DNA of 64,000 nucleotides, taken from Clostridiales bacterium. GTDB taxonomy: Bacteria > Bacillota > Clostridia > Monoglobales > JAIRYP01. Location: contig JAIRYP010000014.1 in assembly GCA_031267755.1 (NCBI GenBank), positions 2,938 through 66,937 of the forward strand. Direction: 5' to 3'. The notes below the pieces were generated by a model. It searched no databases. It was not told the DNA's origin and saw nothing but the letters and a program-made list of their open reading frames with translations. Of this stretch, positions 1,929-55,564 are shown one piece after another. The translations under genes and the position numbers were made by a program. How positions within the stretch are numbered: position 1 is the stretch's first letter; every line of letters begins with the position of its first letter.

Positions 1929-2468
1929 TTAAAATATTTTTTTTAATATTTTGAATGTGAAAATTAATATAATAAAAATCAGGAGAAGAGTATAAAATTT
2001 ATTATCTAAAGTACTTTCTAAATTATTATCAAAAAATAAAAAAAATACTGCACCCAAATTAAAAGATAAGTGCAAAATGATTGGGCTTATTATATTATTG
2101 TATTTAATGTATACGCTACATAAAATTATTCCCATGAGCGTTGCATACATTATTAAAATTAATTCTTTATGAAGTATTCCAAATATTAGAGACGAAAAAA
2201 TAATTGCAAAATTTAAGTTAATTTTCCTCATAACATTAAACAAAAACTTTCTGCAAATTATTTCTTCCAAAAGCGGAGCAAGAATTGTACTTGAAAATAT
2301 AAAGTAAAATTTATGATTTGATATATTTTGAATATATATTGCATAGTTTGAAAAAAAATTTTCAGGTAAACTCAAAACTCTTGTGAAAAGTGTAATTAGA
2401 AAATTCAAAAATAAACCTAGTGTAAATAAGTAAAAAATATCCTTCTTGCTGAAAATTTTGCTATACAT
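1929..2468 (-). CDS. CPBP (CAAX/Abi) family intramembrane metalloprotease
   Basis: 179 aa and polytopic. It carries EEIICRKF (EExxxR), FGILH (FxxxH) and HLSFN (HxxxN). No clear RBS, so the start is uncertain. Confidence 0.75.
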   Translation of the reverse strand: MYSKIFSKKDIFYLFTLGLFLNFLITLFTRVLSLPENFFSNYAIYIQNISNHKFYFIFSSTILAPLLEEIICRKFLFNVMRKINLNFAIIFSSLIFGILHKELILIMYATLMGIILCSVYIKYNNIISPIILHLSFNLGAVFFLFFDNNLESTLDNKFYTLLLIFIILIFTFKILKKIF

Positions 2469-2527
2469 AAAATTTTTATTAAAATTATATTTTATATTTA
2501 TTTTGAATACCTATCTTATCTTTATTT

Positions 2528-2827
2528 TTAAACATTTAAAAGTCCAGAAAAACCCGTTATATCAAAAACTTCACGAATAGAACTGCTTAAATTAATTAAA
2601 AGCAGTTCCATTTGCTGTTTGTGCATTTTTTTTTGAGTTGCAACGAGCATCCGAAGAGCGGCGGAACTTATAGATGTAAGATTCTCTAAATTAATTTTAA
2701 TTTCTTTATTTTTTTCGGAAATTGATTCCTCAAGAATTTTTTCAAGTTCTTTAGAGGATTTAATATCCAGCTTTCCTTTAATTTCTATAAATGTCGAATC
2801 TCCATCTTGTTTTTTATTAAGTTCCAT
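2528..2827 (-). CDS. STAS-domain protein (SpoIIAA-like anti-sigma-factor antagonist)
   Basis: 99 aa. Length and pattern (FIEIKGKLDIKSS...LENLTSISSAALRMLV) are typical of STAS/SpoIIAA proteins. A GGGAGCGGGTG RBS precedes the ATG. No partner kinase or sigma factor is adjacent. Confidence 0.6.
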   Translation of the reverse strand: MELNKKQDGDSTFIEIKGKLDIKSSKELEKILEESISEKNKEIKINLENLTSISSAALRMLVATQKKMHKQQMELLLINLSSSIREVFDITGFSGLLNV

Positions 2828-2859
2828 ATTTTCACCCGCTCCCTCACAGTACCTTTATT

Positions 2860-4914
2860 TTAAAGATTTTGAACTGACCATGAACTTTGAAAAAAATCAT
2901 TTGATCCAAGTGCTCTACCAGAAGGTGGTTTTTCAATTCCAATTCCTAAAATTTTACTTTCATATTTTGCTAAAAAAGAATATACTCCCTTTTCTTTTAT
3001 AGATGCTGAAGTGCCATTTCTGTAGTTGTATCTTAATATTCCATAACTTTCATTTTTTTCCTCTTTAAGATTTTGCGGAATTTCTAAATTTTTATTTTCA
3101 TATTCACCTGCGTCAATTTCTTTTTCAATTACAGAAATGAAAATTTCGTTTTTATCTAAACTGATGGTCTCTTTATTTTTTTCGTTCCACCCGGGCACTT
3201 CATTATATTTTCTTTCACATATTTTTTTTAAACTGTAAGAATCAAAAATTTCAAATGTCTTACTTTTCTTTGTTATGAAAGCTCCATCGCCTGTTTGAAT
3301 ATTTAAAATATTGTTTGAAGAATCAGATTTTGATAATTCAAGTTCTTTAATTCCAACAAGTGCTTTGAGTTCAGTATGAACTTGTTCGCTCTCCTCGCCG
3401 TCACGAACATTTTCAACTGATACAAAATTGTCATTATTTACAAAATCGCTGCTTAATATTTCAAAATTTTCATCCTTAGAAATAACAGCCTTTAGCACAG
3501 GCTTATCAAAATCGAAAGTATTTATTATGAAACGTTTACGAAACGAGATATAATTTTTATTATATTCTTCAAATTCTTCTTGAGACATATCATCCGATTT
3601 CTTTATATCTTGTAATGATCCAAACTCTGATGAATGAACGTCTATTATTAAATTATTTGTTTCGGGTGATAAAAATACATCGTTTATTTTATTTGAAAAA
3701 AATGAAACAGGAATGCCTTCTCTTAAAATGTTTTGAAGTCCAACAAATTTACTTTTTCCTTCTAGAGCCACTTGATATTCTGCAATTTTACTTATTTCTT
3801 CTTCTTTTAATGAAATTTTTTCATCATTTATTTTTGCCACAATTTTATCAATGTCATCATTTTTAATTTCTTCTGGCAAATTATTTCTTATTTCTTTTTC
3901 AAGAGAACTAATGTAAAGAGAAAAATCTAAACCCATTTTATTTAAAAGAATTTTCTCATTAACTAAAATAGGTGTTTTCTTTGTATTTATTCCAGAGTCT
4001 AACTGAGAAGATAAATTTGCAAGTTTAAATTTTTCTATCAAATCTCCCGTTAACCCATTGACAAGAAATTTTGCGCCAGATTCTTCAATTATTTTTGTTG
4101 GGTCAAACTCTATTTTTGAATTATCTTTTTCTTTACTGCGAATTATATAGTAATAATTTTTTGTTTCTCTTTCATCTTCAGAAATTTTAACAAAAACACC
4201 CTTATTAATTTTTTTTGTAGAAATATTTTTTTGATAAATATGGCTTCCTGTTTTGTTATTGTTTTCATCAACTTCTTCTATTTCTTCATAAGGCCATTTC
4301 ATACCAAAGATTTCTTTTGTCTCATTATTCACTATATTAAAGGTTTTTATTTTATAAACGATCGTGTCTTTATAAGCCGTTACTTCTTCAAATTCTGGTA
4401 TTTTATTTCCCTGCTCGTCCAATTCATATTCATAAACGACATTACCCTTTTCGTCATAAACAATATTTCCGTTTTCAATCAACATTACCTGTTTGAAAGA
4501 TTGTTCACCTTTGTCATTTAATTTTTCTTTTTTCACATATATCGGATTTCCATGCTCATCTCTTAATGCGTCGCGAGAAGAATACTCGTAATAATGTTCT
4601 TTTGAATTTTTGTCAAAACCAATATTTTTGATAAAATATATATCTTCTTCAGCATTTTCAAGAGTCTTTTTTTTATAATAACCACTTTCTGTTAAATATA
4701 TTTGTTTTTCCTCATTAACATCTGTACTATCCAAAGGCGAAACATTAACGTTTATTACTTCATTTGTTTCTTTATCATCGGCGTTTTCGTCAGAAACAAA
4801 AACTTCTTCATCGCTTGGTGTATCATTATCATCTAATAATGTTGTGCAAGCATTTAAACCAAATATGGAAAAAACAAGCATAAATAAAATATAACTTTTA
4901 ATTAACTTTTTCAA
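2860..4914 (-). CDS. Large acidic lipoprotein of unknown function, last large gene of the T4SS-like array
   Basis: 684 aa. TTG start 8 nt after GAAGGAGG. The signal peptide ends in the lipobox FGLNAC. The mature part is Asp/Glu/Asn/Lys-rich. A few Y-x-Y-[DE]-x-x-G-N turns (VVYEYELDEQGNKI) resemble YD-type repeats. No catalytic motif recognised. Confidence 0.7.
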   Translation of the reverse strand: MKKLIKSYILFMLVFSIFGLNACTTLLDDNDTPSDEEVFVSDENADDKETNEVINVNVSPLDSTDVNEEKQIYLTESGYYKKKTLENAEEDIYFIKNIGFDKNSKEHYYEYSSRDALRDEHGNPIYVKKEKLNDKGEQSFKQVMLIENGNIVYDEKGNVVYEYELDEQGNKIPEFEEVTAYKDTIVYKIKTFNIVNNETKEIFGMKWPYEEIEEVDENNNKTGSHIYQKNISTKKINKGVFVKISEDERETKNYYYIIRSKEKDNSKIEFDPTKIIEESGAKFLVNGLTGDLIEKFKLANLSSQLDSGINTKKTPILVNEKILLNKMGLDFSLYISSLEKEIRNNLPEEIKNDDIDKIVAKINDEKISLKEEEISKIAEYQVALEGKSKFVGLQNILREGIPVSFFSNKINDVFLSPETNNLIIDVHSSEFGSLQDIKKSDDMSQEEFEEYNKNYISFRKRFIINTFDFDKPVLKAVISKDENFEILSSDFVNNDNFVSVENVRDGEESEQVHTELKALVGIKELELSKSDSSNNILNIQTGDGAFITKKSKTFEIFDSYSLKKICERKYNEVPGWNEKNKETISLDKNEIFISVIEKEIDAGEYENKNLEIPQNLKEEKNESYGILRYNYRNGTSASIKEKGVYSFLAKYESKILGIGIEKPPSGRALGSNDFFQSSWSVQNL

Positions 4915-4978
4915 TTACTAAATTCCTCCTTCTTTGCTTTTAACAAAGAATTTTCTCTTAATATTTTCGTATAATTGT

Positions 4979-5329
4979 TTAAGAAGTAATTTGAGTTACC
5001 CAATTGATAAGTGGTCCTAAACCGAGCTTAAGAACAGCAATCATAATAAAAATCATTATAAAACCGATTGCAGCATTTTTGAGGCTTCCTTTAGCTTTTT
5101 CTCGTTCTTGTTGTTCATCGGCTTTTGCAAATTTTACTCCAATGATAATGCAAAAAATTGCACCAATTGATCCAACGATAAAAAGAGCAGGAATCAATAA
5201 ACTATCAATTAATGCCATAATTGGATTTACTATGCTGCCCCAATCAATCACAGCATCACTTGAGCTTTGATTTATTGTACTTGCTGCTGCAAAAACATTT
5301 TCAAATTTGAACGGATTAAGTTTTAACAT
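4979..5329 (-). CDS. VirB2/TrbC-like pilin-type small membrane protein
   Basis: 116 aa. The architecture is a long leader, then TM1 (IPALFIVGSIGAIFCIIIGV), a charged loop (KFAKADEQQEREKAKGSLKN) and TM2 (AAIGFIMIFIMIAVL). This hairpin topology and size match T4SS pilin-like subunits, and the gene sits inside a VirB4/VirD4 cluster. Confidence 0.5.
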   Translation of the reverse strand: MLKLNPFKFENVFAAASTINQSSSDAVIDWGSIVNPIMALIDSLLIPALFIVGSIGAIFCIIIGVKFAKADEQQEREKAKGSLKNAAIGFIMIFIMIAVLKLGLGPLINWVTQITS

Positions 5330-5393
5330 AAAGCATCATCATTCCTTTTCTGTGAGTTTAATATGTGTTTTAAAAATTTTTGAATTTTGGTCT

Positions 5394-6596
5394 TTATCTT
5401 ATTACAATTTTCTTCTTTAAATATATTATATTTCCAACAATAATTGAAAAAATTGCCGCAACTATAAATATAAAAATATATAAATTGAAATGAATGCGGT
5501 AAATTACCTTGAAACTGTATTCTGAAGTGTTTCCTGCTTCATCGCTTGCAACAATGTTATAATTTCCACTATCAAAATAAGTATGTTCATATTTGCCTTT
5601 TTCTTGAAATATTTTTTCACCATCTTTTATAACAGTAATCATCACATCGTTTTCATCATTTTTCAAAGTTACGAATTTATTTGTGATATTTTCTGAAGAT
5701 AATCCAATCAGATCAATATGAGGACTTGCATCATCAATTATAAACGAATCCATGTAAATAATTTTTGTTTTTAAATCTTGAATTTCAAATCTGTACACAC
5801 CTTCCTCAGCAATTTTAAAAAAAATTGGATTATCAATTGAAAGTTTTTTGTTGTTTGAGTAAACATTTATTATTTCACACGAAAGGGGTGCGTTTATTAT
5901 GCTCAAATTATTCACTTTATGCTTTATTAATCTGAAAGTAAAAACTGTTATAAAATCTTTGAATTCAGTTCCATTTTCATTGTTATGAGGCGAATAAATA
6001 AACATTCTATAAGAACCATGCTCTGTTATTGCATCACCTGATATATAATCGAAATTTTCATCATCTTTTGTACAAAAATATTCAATACCACCTTCAAATT
6101 CAAAGTAAACATCGTGTGTTGTTACCATTTCTGACAAAATATTTGAGTAAAAAAATCTTTTATTTGGAAAAGAATATATATTTTTGTTTTTTTTAGAATC
6201 GAAACCAACTCTCAGACTATCACTTAATAAAGGTTTATTTTGTTGATTTTGTTCATAAATTTTTATTATATCATTTCTAAAGTTTCCAATACCGCTCTCA
6301 CTAATATTTTCTAAAATATTTTTTTCAATAGCATATTTTTTTACTGGTGTTTTACAACTTAAATAACAAATACTTTTATCATTATTGCAATTTTGTTGTT
6401 CTGAAATTTTATATTTTTTTTGCATGATATTGCATCGATTATACGTTTTTTTTATTTTTTCAAATTTACCAACTTTTGTTTCATCGCATAAAACATTATT
6501 TTTTGCATATAAACACATATCATGCGAATTTACAATATTGAAAAATGGAATAAAAGTTAAAAAAAACGTTATTGTAAAAATGAATTTTTTATGCAT
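5394..6596 (-). CDS. Membrane-anchored surface protein, paralog B (N-terminal signal, C-terminal TM anchor)
   Basis: 400 aa. GAGGT RBS, signal-like N-terminus (FFLTFIPFFNIVNS) and a C-terminal TM (IFIFIVAAIFSIIVGNIIYL). It shares FTFR[LI]IK, NAP, ITVIKD and DEAGN-x-SEYSF blocks with the protein at 15094..16206. D-x-AGN is typical of bacterial Ig-like beta-sandwich domains. Confidence 0.6.
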   Translation of the reverse strand: MHKKFIFTITFFLTFIPFFNIVNSHDMCLYAKNNVLCDETKVGKFEKIKKTYNRCNIMQKKYKISEQQNCNNDKSICYLSCKTPVKKYAIEKNILENISESGIGNFRNDIIKIYEQNQQNKPLLSDSLRVGFDSKKNKNIYSFPNKRFFYSNILSEMVTTHDVYFEFEGGIEYFCTKDDENFDYISGDAITEHGSYRMFIYSPHNNENGTEFKDFITVFTFRLIKHKVNNLSIINAPLSCEIINVYSNNKKLSIDNPIFFKIAEEGVYRFEIQDLKTKIIYMDSFIIDDASPHIDLIGLSSENITNKFVTLKNDENDVMITVIKDGEKIFQEKGKYEHTYFDSGNYNIVASDEAGNTSEYSFKVIYRIHFNLYIFIFIVAAIFSIIVGNIIYLKKKIVIR

Positions 6597-6647
6597 TCAT
6601 TACCTCGCACGCTTGAAGTATTTACTAATTTTTATTTGTTATAAAAC

Positions 6648-7097
6648 TTAAGAAGTTTTTGCATTTTCACTTTGGGGGCCAGCATGAGATGTTGGAAAGC
6701 TGGTCAAATCTGTGCTCCGAGAAGCTTTAGTTTCAATTTGTGATACGTTTACATTCGTTTTTTGGTGTTCATTTTGATTTTCGTTTTGATGTATATCTTC
6801 ATCAAAACTTTCTGTTGTAGGTGGCTGTGGTTCTTTTTTGGGAGCAGAAACTTTTGGTTGCTCTGAAACTGTTTCATATACTTTCTTTGCTGCAAAAATG
6901 CCACCGACAAAAGCAGCAACTCCAAGAACTCCGCTGATAATTCCAACACCAACAATAGCAAAAATAGCTGCTGCGACAAGAGTTAAAGCGAGAAAAGCTA
7001 ATATTCCTAAACCAACTCCTAGTACTTTTCTGCCAACATTTCCAGCGGTATCTTGTGCTCTATCTACAATACTTCTTTCTTCTCCTGGCCCACTCAT
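6648..7097 (-). CDS. Small Gly/Ala-rich two-TM membrane protein, unknown function
   Basis: The track ORF starts at 7115, but AAAGGAGG lies inside its first codons. The ATG at 7097..7095 (MSGPGEE...) is therefore the likely start. Two Gly/Ala-rich TM segments are followed by a polar tail. GC is locally elevated. Confidence 0.6.
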   Translation of the reverse strand: MSGPGEERSIVDRAQDTAGNVGRKVLGVGLGILAFLALTLVAAAIFAIVGVGIISGVLGVAAFVGGIFAAKKVYETVSEQPKVSAPKKEPQPPTTESFDEDIHQNENQNEHQKTNVNVSQIETKASRSTDLTSFPTSHAGPQSENAKTS

Positions 7098-7181
7098 AAT
7101 AATTCCTCCTTTCATATTTTATTAAAATTAAGAGTTTAAAATTGAAACAATTTCCAAACTCAATGCTAACTTTAAAACTCT

Positions 7182-7211
7182 ATCTTAACCTTGTTTGAGT
7201 TTTTTAGTCAA
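7182..7211 (-). promoter_or_regulatory. Candidate sigma-A type internal promoter of the T4SS-like array
   Basis: On the minus strand, TTGACT (7211..7206), an 18-nt spacer, then TAAGAT (7187..7182). It sits in the 243-nt gap between the SBP gene and the small membrane protein gene. Confidence 0.3.
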
Positions 7212-7340
7212 TAAATCTATTTCATGAAAGCTTTTAAATTATTTTTTGTTATAATTTAATATAAAAATATAATATTTAAAACTAAAAACAAGGAAAAATA
7301 ATAAATTTTAACAAATTTTAAAGATATTGTTTAGTCGATT

Positions 7341-8162
7341 TTATGACGACTCTTTAATCAGTTTATTACTATATAAATCTTCGTCCATATATTTTGTTCT
7401 TATTTCATCGAGAGAACCGTCTTTGATCATGTCTGTAATAGTTTCGTTTACCAATGATTGTAAGTCTTTGTTTGTTTTATGCATTAAAAATACATATTTT
7501 TCCTTTGGAGCATTTGACACAGTTTCTGCCTGTAATTCTTTATTTTTAATAAGTTCGAGTGCATGGTGTTCGTAACACAAAAATACATCAATTTTATTAT
7601 TAAGTAAATTTTCGGCAACATCATCAATTTTGTCATATTCTTCGGCTTTTTTAGCATCTTTATTACTTATGTCGACAGTTGATGAAACTATTTTTCTAAA
7701 AGTTTCTGCAAACTCATTTGTAGAAGCGACTTTTTTGCCCTTGAGCGAGCCAACAGTTGGGTAAGAAATTCCTCTTTTTGTTACTGAAAAAATACATGAG
7801 CTGTCGTAAGGGATTGAACACAAATAATTAATTTTTACACTTTCATCAATAGGAATACCGGAAACGGCGATGTCAGCACGTTTTGTTCCAACAATACTTG
7901 CAGCGCTTTTGTTTTCTTCTTCAATAAATTCAACTGTCAAATTGAGTTTTTTTGCTACTTCATTTATTATCTCGATGTCAATGCCAATATATTCTTCTTC
8001 AGATGAAGAAGGATTTTTAAAAACGTTTGGATAACAATTATCTTCAACTGCAACGAGAATTTTTCCTCTTTTATTAATTTCTTTAAATGAATTTGTTTTC
8101 CCGCATCCTAAAAGAAATATTAAAAATGCTGAAATTACTGTAGTAAAAAATTTTTTTTTCAA
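7341..8162 (-). CDS. Orphan family-3 (amino-acid type) ABC solute-binding lipoprotein
   Basis: 273 aa with lipobox FLLGCG. The body resembles polar amino-acid binding proteins (ILVAVEDNCYP..., ADIAVSGIPI...). No permease or ATPase genes are adjacent. TTG start followed by an A9 run. Confidence 0.7.
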   Translation of the reverse strand: MKKKFFTTVISAFLIFLLGCGKTNSFKEINKRGKILVAVEDNCYPNVFKNPSSSEEEYIGIDIEIINEVAKKLNLTVEFIEEENKSAASIVGTKRADIAVSGIPIDESVKINYLCSIPYDSSCIFSVTKRGISYPTVGSLKGKKVASTNEFAETFRKIVSSTVDISNKDAKKAEEYDKIDDVAENLLNNKIDVFLCYEHHALELIKNKELQAETVSNAPKEKYVFLMHKTNKDLQSLVNETITDMIKDGSLDEIRTKYMDEDLYSNKLIKESS

Positions 8163-8267
8163 ATTTTTAAACCCCCAAAATAACTTTTATCTTTTTTTAT
8201 ATTTTAAATATTAGAACTTAAATTTTAAGGCTTGGTTTCTAAATAGTGAGAATTATCGAAGTTTCTA

Positions 8268-16206: not shown

Positions 16207-16287
16207 AAAAAACCACCGTTTAAAAAATAATAGTATCAAATAACTTTTTATTATTTATATTAAATTTCAATATCAAACAATATAATT

Positions 16288-18531
16288 TTAACCAGTTGCT
16301 TGTCCTTGATCTTCATTTTCGCCCCCTTCACCTGTACTGTTATCGTTTGAAGAGTCGTATTGTTCTACATCTTCTTGGTTTACGTTTTCTTCTTCTTCTA
16401 AATTATTTGTTGACTCTTCAGAGTATTCAGCATCTGAAATTTCTAAATCATCATGTACATCGTCAGATGTTTGAGAACTATCTGTAGCAACATTTTCGTT
16501 TTCTGATTGTGTTTCGTTTTCTTCGTTTTTTTTCATTCTTGTTTCAAGTACTTGATTTCGAGTTGGTAAATGATAATAAACCTTATCTGAGAAAAATGCA
16601 TTAGCTTTTTGTTCGTCAGTGTTCATAGTTCCAAAATCGTAAAGTGTCGTGCACATATAACTTGGCGTAAATTTAGTTTTAAGAGGATAGTTACCAAATG
16701 TTACAATAATTGAATTTCCTGTGCTTTCTTGATTATTAAGTTTTTGGAGTTCAGATGGGTATATGAGAGCTCTAGTTTGAACTTGTTGAGATACACTGAC
16801 ATCTCCTCCTTTATCGCCAGTTCCTGATGAAACGCTCGCAGTTTGAACGGTCATATTTCCGCAAAGTTCAGAAAATTCTTTGCATGTTTCGATATCATTT
16901 GAACCTATAAACATTTTTATACCACAGTTACTCTTTATAATGTCCGCAATTGTTTTTGTATAAACATTTTCAAGTTGCGCATAAGATTGAACCACCATAA
17001 TGAACCATATTTTACGGCTTCTACCAACTGTTACCATTTTATCAAATTTATCAATTTTAGGCATATTTCCGAATTCATCAAGAATCATGTAAACATTTCT
17101 TGGAAGAGATAAGTCTTCTCTTACAGATGCAATTTTTATCAAAGCCTTATATATAGAAAGTACAAATACTGCAGCAAGCGGATGTCTTGTATCTTTTTCG
17201 TCTGGTATCTTTAAGAATAAAGCTGTTGGTTTTGAAGCAATTTGACTTGGGTCGATATCTGTTGCTGAAGTTAATGCGCACAATCCTTCATCATTAAACA
17301 TTGACATTTTATCAAACGCAATAGACATATAACTAGCGAGAGTTGTTTCCGCAGCACTCAAAACTTGTTTGCTAAGCGTTACCGCTTTAGATAGTGGATT
17401 TCTACCGCAAAAAAATCTTTTCAATTCTTCAAAATTATTTTCCGAATTTGACAAGGCTTTATTTATATTGAAAAAATTAAATTTATTTTTTGTAAGTTCA
17501 AGTTCTGGGTCTTCGGTATCTTCAAGCATAGCGAGAAGAATAGCAAGAATTATAGATTTTGCACCTTTTTCCCATACGGGATCATCTTTTGATTCAACAG
17601 GGCATAAAACGGAGCACAAATCGTTTAAGTCTTCGTAAGCTTCATCATAATATTTCTGTTTTGTAATTTTTATTTTTGATATTAGTTCATCAACATTTGC
17701 GTATGCCTCGTCGTTGTATTCATGCCAAACCTCGCCGTATTCTTCGGGTTTATTCATAAGCTTAAGCCCAGAGTTTTCGGCTTTGTCACGTCTTTTATAA
17801 AGAACTTTTCCTTCATCAACGTACTTTTGATATAGATCAAAAATAGAGTCAAGTGGATTCCATCTGAAAGAAGAGTACGCATCCCTCAAATCGAGAACCA
17901 TGCAATCGTAACCTCTTTCTTTAAGAAATTTACTATGCATTTGAAAAAGTTCCCCTTTTGGGTCAGTGACAATCATCGATGAACCTGCCGAAGCGTGTCC
18001 GAGTATTTGTATCATCGGATTAATGAAAGTAGTAGTTTTACCACTACCTGTTGCTCCAATGATTAAACAGTGCATTGGCGAAGCTAAATTCAAATGTATG
18101 TCGCCATTTTTAAGTACTGCTCGAACGGGAATTCCGTCTTTTTTGAGTTTTTTTAAGCTGTTAAATTTTGCTGGAGGAAAATACTCATCTCTTTCTTTGT
18201 CGGTCATCCAACGAGAATTTTCAAGATTTGTATTTATTGCTGCCGATTTAGAATTTAATATTCTTTTTCTTTTGGCTGAGGAAGTAGGATTAAATACCAT
18301 ATACATAACAATTGAAAATACAGTAGCTACAGCTCCCGTTACGTAAGTGCTTTTTTCTTTAAACACTGACAAATCCCAAAAAATTCCATATTCCTTATGC
18401 TCCATCTTCAAAAAAACAGGTAGATGCAAATATAAAGTACACAATGTAAAACCAAAAAAAATAATTAAAAATGAAACGAACGCTACCCAACCAAGAATTC
18501 TTTTAGTTAAAGCGTCAGAATATTCACTCAT
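16288..18531 (-). CDS. VirD4/TraG-family type IV coupling protein with a long acidic C-terminal tail
   Basis: 747 aa. GAGGTG RBS and N-terminal TM segments. Walker A is LIIGATGSGKTTTF and Walker B is VYMILDEFGNMP. The MVVQSYAQLE block is typical of TraG/VirD4. The last 90 or so aa are strongly acidic (DDVHDDLEISDAEYSEE...EEEENVNQEDVEQYD). Confidence 0.9.
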   Translation of the reverse strand: MSEYSDALTKRILGWVAFVSFLIIFFGFTLCTLYLHLPVFLKMEHKEYGIFWDLSVFKEKSTYVTGAVATVFSIVMYMVFNPTSSAKRKRILNSKSAAINTNLENSRWMTDKERDEYFPPAKFNSLKKLKKDGIPVRAVLKNGDIHLNLASPMHCLIIGATGSGKTTTFINPMIQILGHASAGSSMIVTDPKGELFQMHSKFLKERGYDCMVLDLRDAYSSFRWNPLDSIFDLYQKYVDEGKVLYKRRDKAENSGLKLMNKPEEYGEVWHEYNDEAYANVDELISKIKITKQKYYDEAYEDLNDLCSVLCPVESKDDPVWEKGAKSIILAILLAMLEDTEDPELELTKNKFNFFNINKALSNSENNFEELKRFFCGRNPLSKAVTLSKQVLSAAETTLASYMSIAFDKMSMFNDEGLCALTSATDIDPSQIASKPTALFLKIPDEKDTRHPLAAVFVLSIYKALIKIASVREDLSLPRNVYMILDEFGNMPKIDKFDKMVTVGRSRKIWFIMVVQSYAQLENVYTKTIADIIKSNCGIKMFIGSNDIETCKEFSELCGNMTVQTASVSSGTGDKGGDVSVSQQVQTRALIYPSELQKLNNQESTGNSIIVTFGNYPLKTKFTPSYMCTTLYDFGTMNTDEQKANAFFSDKVYYHLPTRNQVLETRMKKNEENETQSENENVATDSSQTSDDVHDDLEISDAEYSEESTNNLEEEENVNQEDVEQYDSSNDNSTGEGGENEDQGQATG

Positions 18532-18750
18532 ATCTTCACCTCATTTTATAAAACCAAGACACTTTTTAAGATAATCTTCAATGGGTTAAAAGTATAATAC
18601 ATTTTTTTGAGAAAATTAAATACATATAATCTTTTTTATTAAATTAGTGAATAATATCTAAAAATATTCTAGGAATTAATTTTTTATTGATGGAAATGTA
18701 TAATAAGTATATACAATTTGTAAAATGTCAACCATAAGGAGAGGTTTATT

Positions 18751-40902: not shown

Positions 40903-42525
40903 TTATAAACGACAAGGGTGTTGTTTATAAAATAATTCAGGACTAAAATTGTGATCGTTATGACAAAGGTAAAAGCTAATTTTTGATATTAATCTTTGCT
41001 TTTTTGTTTCTGATGATTCAAGTTTAACCAATTTTAATCTCTCACTTTCAATTTCATGTTTTAACGCTTGTTTTGCCTCTTCTTCATTTTTTTGTATTTC
41101 AAGTCTTATTTGTTCGCTCAATAATCTTAATACTTTTTCGATTTCTTTAGTATTTTTTTCAGTTATTTCTATTACTTCGTGAAGCGTTGTAATTTTAAAC
41201 GCCATACCTTCCAATTGTGGGTTTTTCCCAACTATCTCTTGAATTTTGCAACAAACTCTTTCAGCAGTATTTTTGCCTTCAAAAATAATTGTTATTTCAT
41301 CTTGTTTTTGTGTTATTTTTTTTTCATTTTCTTTTATTTTTGATTTCATAATTTCAACTTCATTTTGCTGTGCTATTCTTCTTCTAATTCCATCAAGTTC
41401 TCCTGAACCTTCTAAAGAAATTACTTCGAGCTCTTGTGGTATTGAAAATTCACTACTATCTTTCCTAATTTCTTTAATTAATTCATCTTTTTCTATTTCT
41501 TTTTTTCTAATTTCTGCTTTTTTATTATGGACGTCTTGTTGTAATTTTTCATTTTTACGATTACTTGTTAGTTTTATTTGTAAAAGACAAAGTAATTGGT
41601 TTTCTTTCATTATTTCATACATTTTATACAATAATAATTCGCGTTTATTTAAATGACCTTCTCTTTCTATTTCGAATATTTCTGCATTTAAATGCCTATT
41701 TTCTGCTTCTAGCTCTCTTCTTTCTTTTATCAATTGTTCTATTCTTTCATTTTCTAATTCTTTTCGTTTTTCATATTCAATATTTATTTTTAATAGTTCA
41801 AGAAATTTTGGATTAATTGATTTTAGAATTTCTTCATTTTCTCTTAATTGATCTTTAAATCCTTCAAGTTTACTATTTTCTTTCAAAAAATCTTGTTGTG
41901 CTTCATCGAATTCTTTTTTTATTGCTTGAAGTTGTAATGATTTTACATCAGAAACATGAGATATTTCATTTTCTAAAATTCTAATTTTTTGCGTAATTTC
42001 AATACGTCTTTTTTCTATTTCCTGTGAGTTAAAAATAAGATTTTTGTATTTATTTAAATAATGAATTAATTTTCCCAATTCTAATAAATTTATTGAAAAT
42101 AAAAATAGTTTAGGAGGTGGTGGGTTAAGTTCAGTTACTGTAATTTTACTGATTAAACCAACATAAAAACGATCCAATACTTTATCTTGATACTTAATTC
42201 GAGCTTGATACTCATCTAAAAATTTTTCAACTCTTTCTTGATATTGTAAATATTCAATGTAAAAAATTTTACTAAAAAAATCGGCTTCATTTATTTGATT
42301 AATATCGACTTTTGTTAAAAAACAAACTTCAATAAGTAAATTTCTAATTTCACCAGTAAAATAACTAACAAGTTCATCTTCATGTTTTGTAAATACAAAA
42401 GAATAGTTAAGATATTGTAATATTTTTAAAACATGTGATTTTATAGATTGAAAAATAGTGTCAACTTTCTCTTTTGCTTGAGATTCTAATTCATAACTGT
42501 TTTTTTTGATTTTAACTGCACTCAT
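40903..42525 (-). CDS. Long coiled-coil protein, unknown function
   Basis: 540 aa. AAGGAG RBS. The C-terminal two thirds are E/K/I/L heptad-like. A short NPPPPK motif is present. Confidence 0.6.
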   Translation of the reverse strand: MSAVKIKKNSYELESQAKEKVDTIFQSIKSHVLKILQYLNYSFVFTKHEDELVSYFTGEIRNLLIEVCFLTKVDINQINEADFFSKIFYIEYLQYQERVEKFLDEYQARIKYQDKVLDRFYVGLISKITVTELNPPPPKLFLFSINLLELGKLIHYLNKYKNLIFNSQEIEKRRIEITQKIRILENEISHVSDVKSLQLQAIKKEFDEAQQDFLKENSKLEGFKDQLRENEEILKSINPKFLELLKINIEYEKRKELENERIEQLIKERRELEAENRHLNAEIFEIEREGHLNKRELLLYKMYEIMKENQLLCLLQIKLTSNRKNEKLQQDVHNKKAEIRKKEIEKDELIKEIRKDSSEFSIPQELEVISLEGSGELDGIRRRIAQQNEVEIMKSKIKENEKKITQKQDEITIIFEGKNTAERVCCKIQEIVGKNPQLEGMAFKITTLHEVIEITEKNTKEIEKVLRLLSEQIRLEIQKNEEEAKQALKHEIESERLKLVKLESSETKKQRLISKISFYLCHNDHNFSPELFYKQHPCRL

Positions 42526-43798: not shown

Positions 43799-44062
43799 TT
43801 GGGAGCTACTGAAGAAATAAAAAAATATTCTAAAGAAGAATTAGTTGAAAAAATTTTGGAAATTGAAAATATGACGGATGATGTAGAAAAATTTCAATTA
43901 ATTTTGCAATCGATAGATTGTGGTCAAGATATAGATTTAAGTAAATTAAAAATTGCGATAGATGGAATGAAAACAAAATTGCAGGAAAGTACACAAGAAA
44001 CAATTGAAGAACCATTGATTGAGCAAATATTCGATGTTGAACTTCATATAAAAAATGTATGA
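43799..44062 (+). CDS. Small acidic hypothetical protein, translationally coupled to the next gene
   Basis: TTG at 43799 lies 5 nt after AGGTGA. The track gives GTG at 43790. Its stop overlaps the next start (ATGA). Confidence 0.5.
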   Translation: MGATEEIKKYSKEELVEKILEIENMTDDVEKFQLILQSIDCGQDIDLSKLKIAIDGMKTKLQESTQETIEEPLIEQIFDVELHIKNV

Positions 44063-45288
44063 AAATTTTAGAAAATAAGTTGAGTTTTAGATATTTAAGT
44101 TATAATGAAATATTCAGACATTTTAAAAGGATTAAAATTTGTTTTAACAAAGATTTTGGGCAAGCAGTTGATGTCTTTGGCACAACGTTAGAAAATTTAC
44201 TAGGTAATTTTACGTCAACACAAGAAGAATTAAATTTACTTGAAGAGGCTAAGATTAAAGCGGTAGATATATTTATAAATTTACATAAAACTTCTAGTGC
44301 ATATGAACAACAACTTTTTTTTGAAAAATATGATGAAATTAAATTACTAAATTTAGAAATTGAAAATGCAAAACATATTTTGAAATATTCAAAGTCTAGG
44401 GGTGTAGGAGATAATCTTGAAAATGCTATATTGAAGATGACAAAATCTTTAAAAAATTATGAAAACACTTCAAAGGACCTTAGTGTTAAGCCCGACGAAG
44501 GCGCACTCAATATTGAAGCGATTAATAGTCGATATGTAGCCGCAACCGAACTTTCAAATGCCATAGTTCTTTTGCTACGTGAGAAATATATTACACATTT
44601 TGAAGGCTTGTTATTAGACCGAGAAAAATTTTTAAAAGAAGATGAAGAATTTCTTAGTTTATATGGAGAAAAATTGACGAACGAAGAACGATTGTTGTAC
44701 GAAGAAAAAATAAAAATTGATTCTGATTTTATAGAGGCCATAAAAGAAGCTTCTAAAATAAGAGATGAGGAAACAGAAAATAATTTAGAAAAAAGTAGGA
44801 TTATGCATGTGAAAATGTATGAAGAAACGGAACATATATACGAAAAATTTCTTCACTTTCAGTTTAGTTCAAAAGTTGCTGAAACTCCACCATCAGCAGG
44901 TTCAAAAGCCGCTGAAACTCCATCTCCAGAAGGTTCGAAAGTTGTTGAAACTTCACCTCCAGAAGGTTCGAAAACTAGTAAAACTCCACCTCCAGAAGGT
45001 TCAAAAGCTAACAAAGCTTCACCTCCAGCAGGTTCAAAAACCAATAAAACTTCACCTCCAGTAGATTCAAAGTCTGATGAAACTTCATCTTCGGTAGATT
45101 CAAAAGCTGTTACTCCGGCAGAGTTAGAAGCTGGTGAAACTCCGTCTTTCCCCCTTTTTTCAAAAAGTCAGAAAGATCCAGAACTTTGCTTCGAAGATAT
45201 GTTTGACCTTAGAGCAAACGAGTTATTATCTCGTATTTTAAAAAAAACTCATATTAGTGTTCAGGGTGAAAGATTAGTAAAAAAATAA
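44059..45288 (+). CDS. Hypothetical protein with seven 11-aa Pro-rich tandem repeats near the C-terminus
   Basis: 409 aa. A helical N-terminal part is followed by [x-x-E/K-T-P/S-P/S-P-E/A/V-G/D-S-K] seven times. It then ends ...RANELLSRILKKTHISVQGERLVKK. Confidence 0.75.
   Translation: MKILENKLSFRYLSYNEIFRHFKRIKICFNKDFGQAVDVFGTTLENLLGNFTSTQEELNLLEEAKIKAVDIFINLHKTSSAYEQQLFFEKYDEIKLLNLEIENAKHILKYSKSRGVGDNLENAILKMTKSLKNYENTSKDLSVKPDEGALNIEAINSRYVAATELSNAIVLLLREKYITHFEGLLLDREKFLKEDEEFLSLYGEKLTNEERLLYEEKIKIDSDFIEAIKEASKIRDEETENNLEKSRIMHVKMYEETEHIYEKFLHFQFSSKVAETPPSAGSKAAETPSPEGSKVVETSPPEGSKTSKTPPPEGSKANKASPPAGSKTNKTSPPVDSKSDETSSSVDSKAVTPAELEAGETPSFPLFSKSQKDPELCFEDMFDLRANELLSRILKKTHISVQGERLVKK
44875..45105 (+). 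repeat. Seven tandem 33-bp coding repeats
   Basis: The units are gttgctgaaactccaccatcagcaggttcaaaa, gccgctgaaactccatctccagaaggttcgaaa, gttgttgaaacttcacctccagaaggttcgaaa, actagtaaaactccacctccagaaggttcaaaa, gctaacaaagcttcacctccagcaggttcaaaa, accaataaaacttcacctccagtagattcaaag and tctgatgaaacttcatcttcggtagattcaaaa. Confidence 0.92.
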
Positions 45289-47693: not shown

Positions 47694-47879
47694 AATGAAA
47701 AATTGACCAACGTACGCCTCACAAATAAGTTAAAAACTTATTTGTGAATATTAAATTACATATTTGATATTACAAAAATACGCAAAAAATGTTTATTGGT
47801 TAAAACATATTTTGCAATACAAATATAAAACACATAACATAAAAAACTAAATATTATTTTTTTAAAATTTTGTGGGATA

Positions 47880-48430
47880 CGTTATTACGAAAATCTTGCG
47901 CCTTAGGTCTGGTAGGCTTTCCCAAAAAAATCACTATTTGTTGCCAATATAGTCGTTTCCGTTTAAGTTTTTTTGCGCAACGTTGCCATAAACGCGACCA
48001 GATTACCACTTAGGACACACTGCAATACGGAATACGCTTTATATCTCAGCCTAGGAGTTTTCCTCAGCAACTAAAATTAATTCTTAGCCCCTTTTGCAAA
48101 AATGGTTTCAGTTTGACATTCGCCAAATTCACTCAAGGCAGGCTACTCTACTCACAGTAGTAACCGCAAAATAGGTTTAATCCAAATACGTAATTGTTTT
48201 ATTAAAAATGAAATTAATTTATTTATCATTTACATATAATGGTCTCCACGGAAAAGGGGCTCTCTTTCGCATGCCATTGCAAAGTGCCCCTAAACCTTAA
48301 CTCCCAGCACCAGCCCAAGACTGGGCGTCAAAAGCCAAGCACAAGGAACTTCATCGATATGCCCTTCAACGGATTTTTAGGCCCGTCTTCAAAATCATTT
48401 TAGTTGACTAGGATACTGAATCCCAACTTT
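47880..48430. ncRNA. Unclassified GC-rich, ORF-free block; candidate structured RNA(s), strand unknown
   Basis: No track ORF of 60 aa or more on either strand. GC is clearly higher than the flanks. There are two GC-rich blocks (about 47880..48195 and 48241..48430) split by an AT-rich spacer ending in TATAAT (48235..48240). Hairpins seen by eye are GGGGC-UCU-CUUU-C-GCA-UGCCAU-UGC-AAAG-U-GCCCC at about 48265..48299 and GCCCA-AGAC-UGGGC at about 48312..48325. An alternative long-range partner GCCCGUCUU lies at about 48381..48389. Confidence 0.35.
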
Positions 48431-48472
48431 GTTAAGATATTGTATTTTAATATAAAATTCAATATTTTTTAA

Positions 48473-49045
48473 TTATAATCCAAATGCAGATAGATCCACC
48501 CAATCAGATATTAATACGAAAATAAGTGCATACATTACAATTGGATCTTCATCTTCGTTTTCTAAAAATAAAAGTATAAGTGAAATTAAAAGTAAATCTT
48601 CAGCTGAAAAAAAACCGAATATTTTTTTTGTTTCCCAATTGTATAATTTTTCAGGAATAAAAGATTTAAATATATTTTTTTTTCTTTGTTCCTTTTCTTG
48701 AAAATTTTCGTTATTTATTTTTTTTTCTTTTTTATATTTTTCTCGTGAACTTGGTCTTTGTTTTTGTTTTAAAAATTCATTTTCTTGTGTTCTACGGTAA
48801 TTTTCTTTTTGTGCGTAATTTTTATTTTTTGAATTTTTATAATTTTGAAAATTATTTTGAAAGTTTGATTTAAAGCTTTCTTGTTTGTGTTCATTATTTT
48901 TTTGTGTTTTTTGATTTGTTGAATATTTTTCAAATTCCCTTTCTCTCTTTTTTTCCATCGTATTAAAATTTTGATTTTTTTTGTCAGGATTTATGTTATT
49001 GTTTGGATTAATATTTGAGGAGTGCGATTGATAACGCCTGTACAT
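48473..49045 (-). CDS. Basic Asn/Lys/Gln-rich protein with a C-terminal hydrophobic segment, unknown function
   Basis: 190 aa. GGAGG RBS. The low-complexity N-terminal 130 aa are followed by FFSAEDLLLISLILLFLENEDEDPIVMYALIFVLISDW. Confidence 0.55.
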   Translation of the reverse strand: MYRRYQSHSSNINPNNNINPDKKNQNFNTMEKKREREFEKYSTNQKTQKNNEHKQESFKSNFQNNFQNYKNSKNKNYAQKENYRRTQENEFLKQKQRPSSREKYKKEKKINNENFQEKEQRKKNIFKSFIPEKLYNWETKKIFGFFSAEDLLLISLILLFLENEDEDPIVMYALIFVLISDWVDLSAFGL

Positions 49046-54760: not shown

Positions 54761-54922
54761 AAAATAACTCCTAATAAATTAATTTATTATTAACACATAT
54801 ATACTAATTATATTTTTTAAATATGTCAATGTATTAAAAATTTTTATGGCATAAATAAAATTTTTTAGGGAACAATGAATGTTGTTTTTAAATAATTTAA
54901 AATGGAAAGGGGTTCAAGTGAA

Positions 54923-55564
54923 ATGGCAGCTTTTTCTCGGGAAAAAAGAGTTAGTTTAGTGCAATTGCCTGGCAAAGATCCGACGACGTTATTTAATGAA
55001 TTTTTTGGAAATATATTACCTCAGCCAGGTGGACCAAAGTATTTTAAATCTTTTTTTGAATCTATGAATCGTTGGTTAACTGATGAACTTGAGCCTATAA
55101 AATTCGCTGAACAATTACGGAATAATCGAGGAATTTGGAGTTACAATGATGTTGATTGCCCTGTAAGGATTTTATTTGCATTTGATAATTTTGAAGAAAT
55201 GAATGAATTGTTAATTTTAAATAGAACGCTTGACCACGATCATGAAAAAGCTATTCCAGGGATTTGGGACACGCTTGATAAACTATCGAAAGGAATATAT
55301 GCAAGATTTAATCTGGATGCTGATGTTTTGAGTATTGCTGATGAAATAAAGTTGAAAGATTTAGGAGCATTTGAAAGCTTTATTTTTCAATTAGTTGAAC
55401 ATACTGTGATTATAGGAGAACCTTTTTTACTGAGATTACCACCAGAATCATTGTCTTCAAAAGAAAAACAAAAATCCAAACTCCCACCATCTTCACCATC
55501 GAAACCCTCGCCATCACCTAAGGGAAAAGGAAAAGAACCGAGAAGAGGACCCGGAAAACAATAA
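54923..55564 (+). CDS. Hypothetical protein with a Pro/Ser/Lys-rich C-terminal tail; locally elevated GC
   Basis: The ATG at 54923 (MAAFSREKR) lies about 10 nt after AAAGGGG. The track ORF starts at 54902. The tail reads LPPESLSSKEKQKSKLPPSSPSKPSPSPKGKGKEPRRGPGKQ. VRILFAFDNFEEMNELLILN loosely recalls RelE/Gp49-type toxin folds; I cannot verify this. Confidence 0.5.
   Translation: MAAFSREKRVSLVQLPGKDPTTLFNEFFGNILPQPGGPKYFKSFFESMNRWLTDELEPIKFAEQLRNNRGIWSYNDVDCPVRILFAFDNFEEMNELLILNRTLDHDHEKAIPGIWDTLDKLSKGIYARFNLDADVLSIADEIKLKDLGAFESFIFQLVEHTVIIGEPFLLRLPPESLSSKEKQKSKLPPSSPSKPSPSPKGKGKEPRRGPGKQ

Follow-up and report, generated by a model that had tools for sequence, protein, structure and literature searches.

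We analysed a 64-kb stretch of a Clostridiales bacterium genome (NCBI GenBank assembly GCA_031267755.1, contig JAIRYP010000014.1, 67.7 kb in total), referred to below as the window, and found on its minus strand a unit of 12 genes (1929-18531) encoding a minimal type IV secretion system (T4SS). Judged by sequence and gene order, this locus belongs to a T4SS family that is conserved on the chromosomes of Clostridia. It lies on the chromosome between housekeeping genes, has no relaxase gene and is ameliorated in composition, and on balance we read it as a host-owned, domesticated T4SS that transfers something other than its own locus and is not self-transmissible. A sequence-only reading of this DNA had presented ten of the genes (2860-18531) as a possibly domesticated T4SS. 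The locus is not an isolated case, as the 80 best related loci from Clostridia share its synteny, and the comparative data favour domestication, whereas the non-conjugative function then proposed (protein delivery or contact with a host) is still something that we infer.

A conserved family in Clostridia

VirB4 homologs sharing 50-62% identity with the window protein numbered more than 400 and came nearly all from Clostridia, with carriers in Lachnospiraceae, Oscillospiraceae, Enterocloster, Hungatella, Butyrivibrio and others. In a scan of one genome per species, 522 genomes held a VirB4 relative; for the best 80 loci (47-60% VirB4 identity) we fetched the sequences, called open reading frames (ORFs) and clustered the products. 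These loci share a recurring gene order: (RsbW-like kinase, DUF1292), STAS protein, CPBP protease, VirD4, surface protein, VirB6, VirB6, VirB4, solute-binding protein (SBP)-like lipoprotein, small protein, surface protein, pilin and large lipoprotein, after which a choline-binding-repeat protein and a cNMP-binding SpoIIE phosphatase are often encoded. Among the 37 loci complete to about 10 kb on both sides, VirB6 was present in 97%, surface proteins in 95%, VirD4 and CPBP in 92% each, the SBP in 89%, the pilin in 70% (a lower bound, as this is a small ORF), the large lipoprotein in 65% and STAS in 57%; two VirB6 copies were found in 31 of them. Identity of the window proteins to their relatives falls from about 59% for VirB4 through 38-51% for the pilin, about 27% for VirB6 and about 20% for the surface proteins to none detectable for the 684-aa lipoprotein. 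Such a drop from cytoplasm to surface is typical of a working envelope machine that diversifies in its exposed parts.

The shared order also bears on the possibility that the locus is a decaying, functionless remnant of an integrated conjugative element from which relaxase and integrase were lost. The locus indeed lacks any mobility gene, and the 684-aa lipoprotein has no detectable relatives, as such a remnant might show. However, none of the 12 genes is broken, and ribosome-binding sites and catalytic motifs are in place; the 80 best loci, which come from different species at 47-60% VirB4 identity, preserve gene set and order; and the family-specific additions (SBP, STAS, CPBP and second surface protein) are conserved as well. 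Independent decay would not yield a shared order, and we therefore regard a remnant as highly improbable and rejected it, the genes being intact and conserved.

In Enterocloster asparagiformis, the gene neighbourhood was essentially identical in the 24 longest contigs read, and the identical VirB4 of this species is indexed in 333 blocks of the sequence collection. VirB4 similarity groups broadly track the taxon labels of the genomes they come from. Family loci span GC values of 0.28 to 0.65, and the GC of the module closely follows that of its far flanks (r = 0.99; 8 loci with enough flank, GC 0.28-0.62). Because the neighbourhood is constant, the VirB4 groups follow taxa and GC matches the flanks, the comparison points to long residence and mainly vertical descent rather than recent mobility.

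Modules were also found in bins labelled Paludibacteraceae, Parolsenella, Prevotella and Selenomonadales (loci L048, L050, L055, L060 and L074), with VirB4 proteins 87-96% identical to those of the Firmicute-labelled loci L053, L044, L046 and L073 from the same project. These near-identical proteins under different phylum labels reflect either mislabelled bins or recent transfer across phyla. The closest relative of the window locus, L081 (61% VirB4 identity), lacks a VirD4 gene over the 6.7 kb that precede its VirB4 gene and is also without a large lipoprotein, STAS or adjacent CPBP; directly after its pilin a 237-aa SSB-family protein is encoded (12728-13441), followed by spo0A, rny, lgt and a penicillin-binding protein gene.

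Mobility genes, flanks and a mobile relative

Searches with Pfam and NCBIfam matched none of the array proteins to a relaxase, recombinase, hydrolase, VirB8/TcpC or VirB11 family. Outside the array, a screen of all window ORFs of at least 190 aa found no relaxase, integrase, transposase, replication or partition gene, and the window holds no DDE (Mutator-like) transposase of the CDS22 type known from mollicute elements. We performed jackhmmer with the MobL relaxase, tyrosine integrase and ArdC of a mobile relative (L090, described below) and obtained no match in six-frame translations of the window or in 89 other loci. There are no credible att-like flanking repeats around the array, only short AT-rich repeats of 70-80% identity, and the only tRNA gene (Thr, at 28341) lies 10 kb away. 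On the left the array is flanked by dapB (partial) and dapA and on the right by pfkA, which is transcribed divergently and followed by 45 kb of housekeeping sequence. ORFs of at least 190 aa at 26-64 kb encode housekeeping proteins or Pfam-less proteins of low complexity; the housekeeping genes of the window comprise nrdD, feoB, yunB, engB, the gene for V-ATPase subunit D, rnc, rpsF, ssb, xseA, truB, rsmI, a gene for a YabE-like 3D/G5 protein, clpC, mcsB, fabD, proB and proA. GC is 0.304 in the span from VirD4 to the pilin versus 0.279 in distant flanks. On all these points (no relaxase, recombinase, replication or partition gene, no hydrolase or VirB11, no flanking direct repeats, core-metabolism flanks, ordinary composition) the sequence-only reading was borne out.

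The single relative that we found among 2.9 million viral contigs, L090 (IMG/VR contig IMGVR_UViG_3300045988_183852, 188-22571; 41% VirB4 identity), is filed as viral but, from its genes, looks like an integrative and conjugative element (ICE). It encodes a MobL relaxase (PF18555, 8.7e-28) directly upstream of VirD4, then a 1424-aa surface protein, one VirB6-like protein and VirB4, and beyond these ArdC, DUF3846, N6- and C5-DNA methyltransferases and a tyrosine integrase. L090 serves as a positive control, as the screens do detect mobility genes where they are present. The position held by the relaxase in L090 is occupied by the divergent pfkA in the window and by regulators in the relatives. 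Carriage by phage was rejected, L090 being the one match among those viral contigs. Carriage on plasmids was rejected too: none of 72,556 PLSDB plasmids encodes a VirB4 above 60% identity, and the best full-length match, on a Spiroplasma plasmid, reaches 27%.

In Pfam-annotated related loci, the neighbours of the module are regulators, not mobility genes. LytTR response regulators and HATPase_c_5 kinases are encoded upstream of VirD4, and a fused cNMP-binding/SpoIIE/HATPase_c_2 protein, STAS proteins and further response regulators also adjoin modules; in one relative the module stands directly behind rpsR.

These surroundings weigh on a second possibility, that the locus supplies the conjugation functions of a larger ICE, with relaxase, integrase and att sites situated outside the window, past dapB or at another place on the contig. 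The window begins inside dapB, and about 3.7 kb of the contig lies outside it, which leaves some room for such an arm. However, dapB/dapA and pfkA bracket the module directly, with the long housekeeping stretch on the pfkA side; the relaxase abuts VirD4 in L090, where the window has pfkA; and in related loci both sides hold regulators rather than mobility genes. We give a larger ICE very little credence, and a hidden arm beyond dapB was rejected on account of the housekeeping flanks. Domestication is favoured over a decaying or hidden ICE because synteny is shared by 80 loci, the genes are intact, regulators take the place of the relaxase and no plasmid carries a close VirB4.

Gene content of the locus

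The ten co-directional ORFs from the 684-aa lipoprotein gene to virD4 are all intact, as the sequence-only reading had described them, and Pfam and NCBIfam profiles upheld the identities that it had given to VirD4, VirB4, the VirB6-like pair, the pilin and the SBP (Table 1). The limits of the array needed revision: we extend the unit to 12 genes because the STAS and CPBP genes follow close behind the lipoprotein gene (gaps of 32 and 59 nt) and because the locus ends in the same way in E. asparagiformis. Intergenic gaps in the array range from 20 to 225 nt, with the VirB6 paralogs 20 nt apart, and Shine-Dalgarno-like motifs precede most array genes, in agreement with the ribosome-binding sites and short gaps reported earlier. 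A hydropathy and transmembrane (TM) scan of the array proteins also fits the earlier topologies. The true start of surface protein A is likely the ATG at 16206, giving 370 aa, and that of the small protein is likely 7097, as an AGGAGG lies within the long ORF. A scan for promoter and terminator consensus sequences gave a result no better than shuffled sequence. Window GC is about 28%, and the ORFs are intact under genetic code 11.

Table 1. Features of the T4SS locus, listed in the direction of transcription
Feature	Position	Strand	Basis or description
Divergent intergenic region virD4/pfkA	18532..18750		presumed promoter region of the array, read from gene layout
VirD4-type coupling protein, 747 aa	16288..18531	-	PF02534, PF12696, PF10412, NCBIfam conju_CD1115
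Surface protein A	15094..16239	-	N-terminal signal/TM, beta-rich ectodomain, C-terminal TM anchor
VirB6-like polytopic protein A, 663 aa	13019..15010	-	NF045848, NF045889
VirB6-like polytopic protein B, 590 aa	11226..12998	-	NF045848, NF045889
VirB4 ATPase, 923 aa	8268..11039	-	PF19044, PF01935, NCBIfam VirB4_plasma
SBP_bac_3-fold lipoprotein, 273 aa	7341..8162	-	PF00497; lipobox LLGC
Small Gly/Ala-rich membrane protein, ~149 aa from likely start	6648..7115	-	ORF and TM scan
Surface protein B, 400 aa	5394..6596	-	signal/TM, Ig-like domains, C-terminal TM anchor
VirB2-type pilin, 116 aa	4979..5329	-	PF18895, NF045849
684-aa lipoprotein	2860..4914	-	orphan sequence, position only; lipobox LNAC
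STAS-domain protein, 99 aa	2528..2827	-	PF01740
CPBP/Rce1-like intramembrane protease, 179 aa, ~4 TM helices	1929..2468	-	PF02517

ATPases, VirB6-like proteins and pilin

VirD4 matched PF02534 (7.5e-54), PF12696 (6.3e-32) and PF10412 (2.5e-28) and scored 295.5 bits against NCBIfam conju_CD1115 (cutoff 250); a faint match to the archaeal CedB was also seen (E = 0.0044, 15.7 bits). The protein has two N-terminal TM helices, a Walker A motif (GATGSGKT) at residue 159, a Walker B-like motif (YMILDE) at 481 and an acidic C-terminal tail of about 100 aa. VirB4 matched PF19044 (8.2e-21) and PF01935 (TraG P-loop, DUF87); with NCBIfam VirB4_plasma (Mbov_0397) it scored 559 bits (1.3e-167), just below the equivalog cutoff of 590, and with the Clostridioides difficile CD1110 family 142 bits. 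Its Walker A (GKSGSGKS, 554) and Walker B (IVVIDE, 794) motifs are both intact. The sequence-only reading had called this protein a VirB3-VirB4 fusion. Two conserved TM helices do occupy the N terminus, yet residues 1-110 matched no Pfam family, and the likeness to VirB3 is one of topology only.

Both VirB6-like proteins exceeded the NCBIfam cutoffs for NF045848 (MMCAP2_0566 family; A 177.7 and B 189.7 bits, cutoff 90) and NF045889 (Mbov_0396; A 95.8 and B 97.3 bits, cutoff 70). The TM scan gave 6-8 hydrophobic segments for the paralogs, and protein A consists of a signal peptide, an ectodomain of about 250 aa and then about 7 TM helices. Pfam TrbL_4 was reached by 3 of 34 VirB6-like family members. 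Protein B ends in a Gly-rich and then poly-Pro tail; the latter is encoded by a GGN repeat on the plus strand (11236-11364, 12-nt period), which raises local GC to 0.34. In relatives the second VirB6 paralog is far longer, with a median of 785 aa and a maximum of about 1850 aa, and in this resembles 'extended VirB6' proteins.

The pilin matched PF18895 (4.2e-10, 40 bits, cutoff 26.6) and NF045849 (Mbov_0395 pilin-like; 55.6 bits, cutoff 40). It is a two-TM hairpin around a conserved charged loop, KFAKADEQQEREKAK, and an alignment of 40 family members holds 19 invariant columns. Together with the intact Walker motifs, these columns suggest functional constraint. Profiles of the pilin and of the VirB6-like proteins found no significant match in searches of the PDB.

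Surface proteins, lipoproteins, STAS and CPBP

Surface proteins A and B are paralogs (34% identity), and A groups with one of the two surface-protein genes found per locus. Sequence homolog searches with them returned almost nothing, and a profile search of the PDB gave no significant match. We modelled surface protein B with AlphaFold2 from a three-sequence alignment (pLDDT 60-90 in the beta region, 57 overall); it is predicted to have three Ig-like beta-sandwich domains (about 128-365) and a TM anchor (369-392), with conserved 'GxY...DxAGN' motifs. Foldseek against the PDB matched the model to tandem Ig adhesion molecules, with NCAM Ig1-3 at 2.6e-6, and because of this tandem Ig-like match surface protein B is predicted to be neither a VirB8 (NTF2) fold nor a hydrolase. 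The sequence-only reading had suggested structure prediction as a way to uncover hidden VirB8 or hydrolase folds. For surface protein B this gave the Ig-like model; for the 684-aa lipoprotein a single-sequence AlphaFold model was unusable (pLDDT 33).

The SBP lipoprotein matched PF00497 (5e-20) and scored far under the cutoffs of all NCBIfam transporter equivalogs. It had earlier been called an orphan, which the family does not bear out: an SBP follows VirB4 in 60 of the 80 loci, and the frequency in complete loci given above counts a degenerate form (cluster c17) that escapes Pfam recognition in some relatives. By this distribution the SBP-fold lipoprotein is an integral conserved component, not an orphan transporter part. 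The small Gly/Ala-rich protein next to it carries a hydrophobic hairpin of about 48 aa; at its position L081 has a similar 136-aa protein, and Lachnospiraceae relatives instead have a hydrophilic 'MAYFDSPKNRALWE' protein of about 100 aa.

The 684-aa lipoprotein matched nothing in Pfam, NCBIfam or the PDB, and only itself among 1.84 billion representative proteins. In at least 31 related loci a large lipoprotein of 490-1640 aa is encoded directly after the pilin. These are homologous to one another over their N-terminal 200-350 residues (hhalign 91-99.9%), while hhalign found no significant profile match between them and the 684-aa protein, which is their equivalent by position, not by sequence.

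The STAS protein (PF01740, 4.1e-15) keeps the serine pair in 'LTSISSAAL' and is, as its sequence suggests, a partner-switching component of the anti-sigma-antagonist type. It groups with STAS genes in 34 of the 80 loci. In L045, L056, L062, L066, L072, L078 and L079 STAS stands directly behind VirB4, an arrangement seen in a termite-gut sublineage, and in E. asparagiformis it occupies the same position at the end of the locus. The CPBP protease (PF02517, 3.8e-19) is as frequent in complete loci as VirD4. Proteases of the CPBP type are often tied to bacteriocin immunity or peptide processing. In three rearranged loci (L022, L051 and L088) the CPBP gene adjoins the pilin gene, and because of this adjacency we suggest a role in pilin maturation or, alternatively, in immunity.

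The locus might instead specify a surface organelle or import device, mainly a VirB2-type pilus and adhesin complex for attachment, aggregation, biofilm formation or uptake from other cells. The strongly conserved pilin, the two Ig-like surface proteins, the variable large lipoprotein and the SBP-fold lipoprotein would all suit such a structure, VirD4 is missing from the 6.7 kb ahead of VirB4 in L081, and a precedent for uptake has been proposed in Patescibacteria (PMC12102498, PMC12857230). We nevertheless consider it unlikely: VirD4, the receptor for export substrates, is intact in the window and present in nearly all complete loci, and the pilus itself is only predicted from the pilin gene.

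Comparison with known systems

The closest relatives of the machinery appear to be the transfer apparatus of mollicute ICEs, which gave the strongest family signal with NCBIfam; the sequence-only reading had noted this resemblance as a loose one. In the ICEA element of Mycoplasma agalactiae, CDS5 (VirD4), CDS17 (VirB4), CDS16 (VirB6-like), CDS15 (pilin/VirB3-like), the surface lipoprotein CDS14 and a DDE transposase are needed for transfer (PMC6030558; PMC12857230). The window pilin and both VirB6-like proteins score above the cutoffs of the mollicute families (Mbov_0395; MMCAP2_0566 and Mbov_0396), and VirB4 falls just below its own. Both systems are minimal, without recognisable VirB1, VirB8 or VirB11 and with a surface lipoprotein added, and mollicute ICEs have no recognisable relaxase either (PMC6030558, PMC12857230). 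They differ in that mollicute ICEs are mobile, with a DDE transposase (CDS22), a ParA-like gene and many insertion sites in wall-less hosts, whereas the window locus has no transposase and lies between housekeeping genes of a walled spore-former. The window locus also adds the VirB6 duplication, two Ig-like proteins, the SBP-fold lipoprotein, STAS and CPBP, and its 684-aa lipoprotein has no sequence similarity to CDS14.

This kinship is the chief support for a rival in which the machine is domesticated and still moves DNA, either by relaxase-free chromosomal exchange or as a mating pore for mobilisable elements that bring their own relaxase; mycoplasma chromosomal transfer and the archaeal Ced import system are its models. 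The nearest characterised homologs are mollicute ICE proteins, which ICE transfer requires (PMC6030558) and which also support the transfer of chromosomal DNA (PMC12857230), VirD4 scores above the cutoff for a conjugative type IV coupling protein (T4CP) family, L090 shows that conjugation is the ancestral use in the clade, and an SSB-family gene stands beside the pilin gene in L081. However, that SSB neighbour occurs in one locus only, no DNA-processing gene is conserved beside the module in any locus examined, and it is regulators, a protease and surface proteins that are kept as partners. We hold DNA exchange to be a credible but doubtful account of the locus.

The chromosomal T4SSs of Patescibacteria (e.g. 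Southlakia epibionticum), which we compared by published function and architecture (PMC12102498), are likewise monoderm, chromosomal, mostly relaxase-less and related to MPF-FATA, have VirB2-like pilins by PF18895, and have been proposed as a non-conjugative co-option (PMC12102498, PMC12857230). Their loci contain VirB1-, VirB8- and TrsD-like genes, arrays of 2-11 pilin genes and a usually distant T4CP, and VirB3-VirB4 fusions were not found there (PMC12102498); the window locus has one pilin, an adjacent VirD4 and, by profile searches, neither VirB1 nor VirB8. Its host is a free-standing, spore-forming Firmicute rather than an ultrasmall epibiont.

Conjugative T4SSs of the MPF-FATA type (pCF10, pIP501, ICEBs1/Tn916, C. 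difficile CTn4) and L090 share VirB4, a CD1115-family VirD4 and a VirB6-like protein with the window locus, and L090 also shares the core order of VirD4, surface protein, VirB6 and VirB4. MPF-FATA systems come with a relaxase, a peptidoglycan hydrolase, a VirB8-like protein and either an integrase or a replicon, and they are without VirB2 pilins (PMC12102498); on each of these points the window locus is the reverse, for VirB8 as judged by profile searches. The type IV-C secretion system of Streptococcus suis 89K, compared by description, is a Gram-positive T4SS credited with protein export (SspA-1; PMC12857230), but it lies on a pathogenicity island with VirB1, VirB8 and the usual set of mobile-element genes and has no pilin.

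One archaeal parallel also deserves mention. The Ced and Ted systems are chromosomal, relaxase-less derivatives of conjugation that use a VirB4/HerA-type ATPase, a polytopic membrane protein and small pilin-like proteins for intercellular DNA exchange. They belong to another domain of life with another envelope, and the faint CedB match of VirD4 is the only one to the window locus. DNA import is mentioned in a recent review (PMC12857230).

A proposed mechanism and its cargo

Returning to the domesticated T4SS that we prefer, we propose that a partner-switching signal acting through the STAS protein would turn the system on, with partners that in relatives would be the RsbW-like kinase, the cNMP-binding SpoIIE phosphatase and an ECF sigma factor or LytTR two-component systems. 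A VirD4 hexamer would then pick a cytoplasmic substrate, perhaps through its acidic tail, and membrane-anchored VirB4 with the two VirB6-like proteins would form the membrane channel. The VirB2-type pilin would build a conduit or short pilus across the wall, possibly after trimming by the CPBP protease, and the two Ig-like single-pass proteins, the SBP-fold lipoprotein and the fast-evolving large lipoprotein would make up the wall-spanning, cell-contact part. As to regulation, a gene for a sigma-70 family sigma factor of the ECF type (cluster c27) lies beside the module in L040, L051, L052 and L067; because of this placement in four loci, we suggest that a STAS/RsbW/SpoIIE partner switch controls a dedicated sigma factor in some lineages.

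We think that the cargo is probably some macromolecule passed to another cell on contact, with protein more probable than DNA of the locus itself. We lean to protein because regulators replace the relaxase, CPBP is co-conserved, the surface parts are polymorphic and kinase-like proteins are encoded near the module in some relatives. A bolder version, which we put forward tentatively, is that the family constitutes a new class of Gram-positive T4SS: chromosomal, controlled by a partner switch, equipped with a VirB2-type pilus, and delivering proteins on contact to bacteria or host cells. The family would then be widespread in gut Clostridia and linked to mollicute ICE machines and possibly to those of Patescibacteria, with the kinase-like proteins of relatives as candidate effectors and, in this genome, the Pfam-less proline-rich coiled-coil proteins described below.

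Several considerations weigh against a host-owned machine with a cargo other than its own DNA. The experimentally characterised close relatives, mollicute ICE CDS5/15/16/17, all move DNA (PMC6030558), as do nearly all Gram-positive T4SSs (PMC12857230), and because mollicute ICEs transfer without a recognised relaxase, a missing relaxase is weaker evidence against DNA transfer in this clade. A relaxase elsewhere in the genome may act in trans, our search having covered the 64-kb window. Every non-ATPase array protein except STAS has a signal peptide or TM helix, which leaves no effector candidate within the array. The related loci cover 10 kb on each side of VirB4, and the inspected set leaves aside the 442 lower-ranked of the 522 relatives, which may include ICE-borne forms. 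The case for vertical descent builds on GC, synteny and VirB4 similarity groups and not on a species tree, and the roles that we assign to STAS, CPBP, SBP and the lipoproteins are drawn from co-occurrence.

Two kinds of neighbouring gene in relatives are of further interest. Clusters c14 (L008, L012, L013, L024, L027, L035 and L041) and c38 (L048, L053 and L055) comprise cytoplasmic proteins of 520-920 aa, often in tandem, whose genes lie a short way downstream of the module; the window has none of them. The c14 proteins conserve the motif QNDRHxxN...GIDNDLSFG without significant Pfam or PDB match, the c38 proteins have weak PI3_PI4_kinase and Fam20C matches, and both are candidate effectors or regulators. 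In one sublineage a Peptidase_M15_4 protein (2e-19) is encoded near the module (L021, 18277-19275; also L025 and L032; cluster c34), and it is the sole peptidoglycan-hydrolase candidate in any related locus.

Host and other features of the window

The host is a spore-forming, Clostridia-like Firmicute, as indicated by an OLE (ornate large extremophilic) RNA and the sporulation gene yunB. The window also holds dapA/dapB, the YabE-like 3D/G5 protein gene and ORFs that read in code 11, and a wall-less mollicute host does not fit this set. The OLE RNA is full length (47858-48440, minus strand; 401 bits, E = 2e-114) and identifies the host as an anaerobic Firmicute of the type that bears OLE; beside it lies a 190-aa ORF with a C-terminal hydrophobic segment (48473-49045). 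ClpC, NrdD, DapA, SSB, VirB4 and VirD4 each stood alone when about 15 billion proteins were clustered at 90% identity, and since no protein above this identity occurs elsewhere in that collection, the source lineage is a singleton.

Four coiled-coil or proline-rich proteins without signal peptide or Pfam match are encoded at 30010-32118 (minus), 40903-42525 (minus), 44059-45288 (plus) and 54902-55564 (plus) and are possible secreted or effector-like proteins. One of them (702 aa) contains ten consecutive prolines and then 'LSHLELFKKTIDPDNPLANLRKV', which by eye, and without Pfam support, resembles a WH2-type actin-binding motif; another (409 aa) has 'PPxGSK' repeats.

Significance

We found no published description of this Clostridial T4SS family in the literature searched, which is not proof of absence; individual genes have already been annotated by database curators, and the family, which occurs in many gut Clostridia, is apparently undescribed. 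What appears to be new is a chromosomal, relaxase-less, pilin-bearing and partner-switch-associated T4SS family in Clostridia. Gram-positive T4SS classes are otherwise without VirB2 pilins, except in Patescibacteria (PMC12102498; PMC12857230), and effector export by Gram-positive T4SSs is a long-standing open question (PMC12857230, a review of December 2025). Carriers include the named isolates or type strains E. asparagiformis, E. citroniae, E. lavalensis, Moryella indoligenes DSM 19659 and Butyrivibrio sp. WCD3002, and a non-conjugative function of a Gram-positive T4SS is therefore testable. The family would represent the walled-bacterium counterpart of the minimal mollicute ICE machinery, and its MobL-bearing ICE relative, L090, can provide the outgroup in work on the domestication of conjugation machines.

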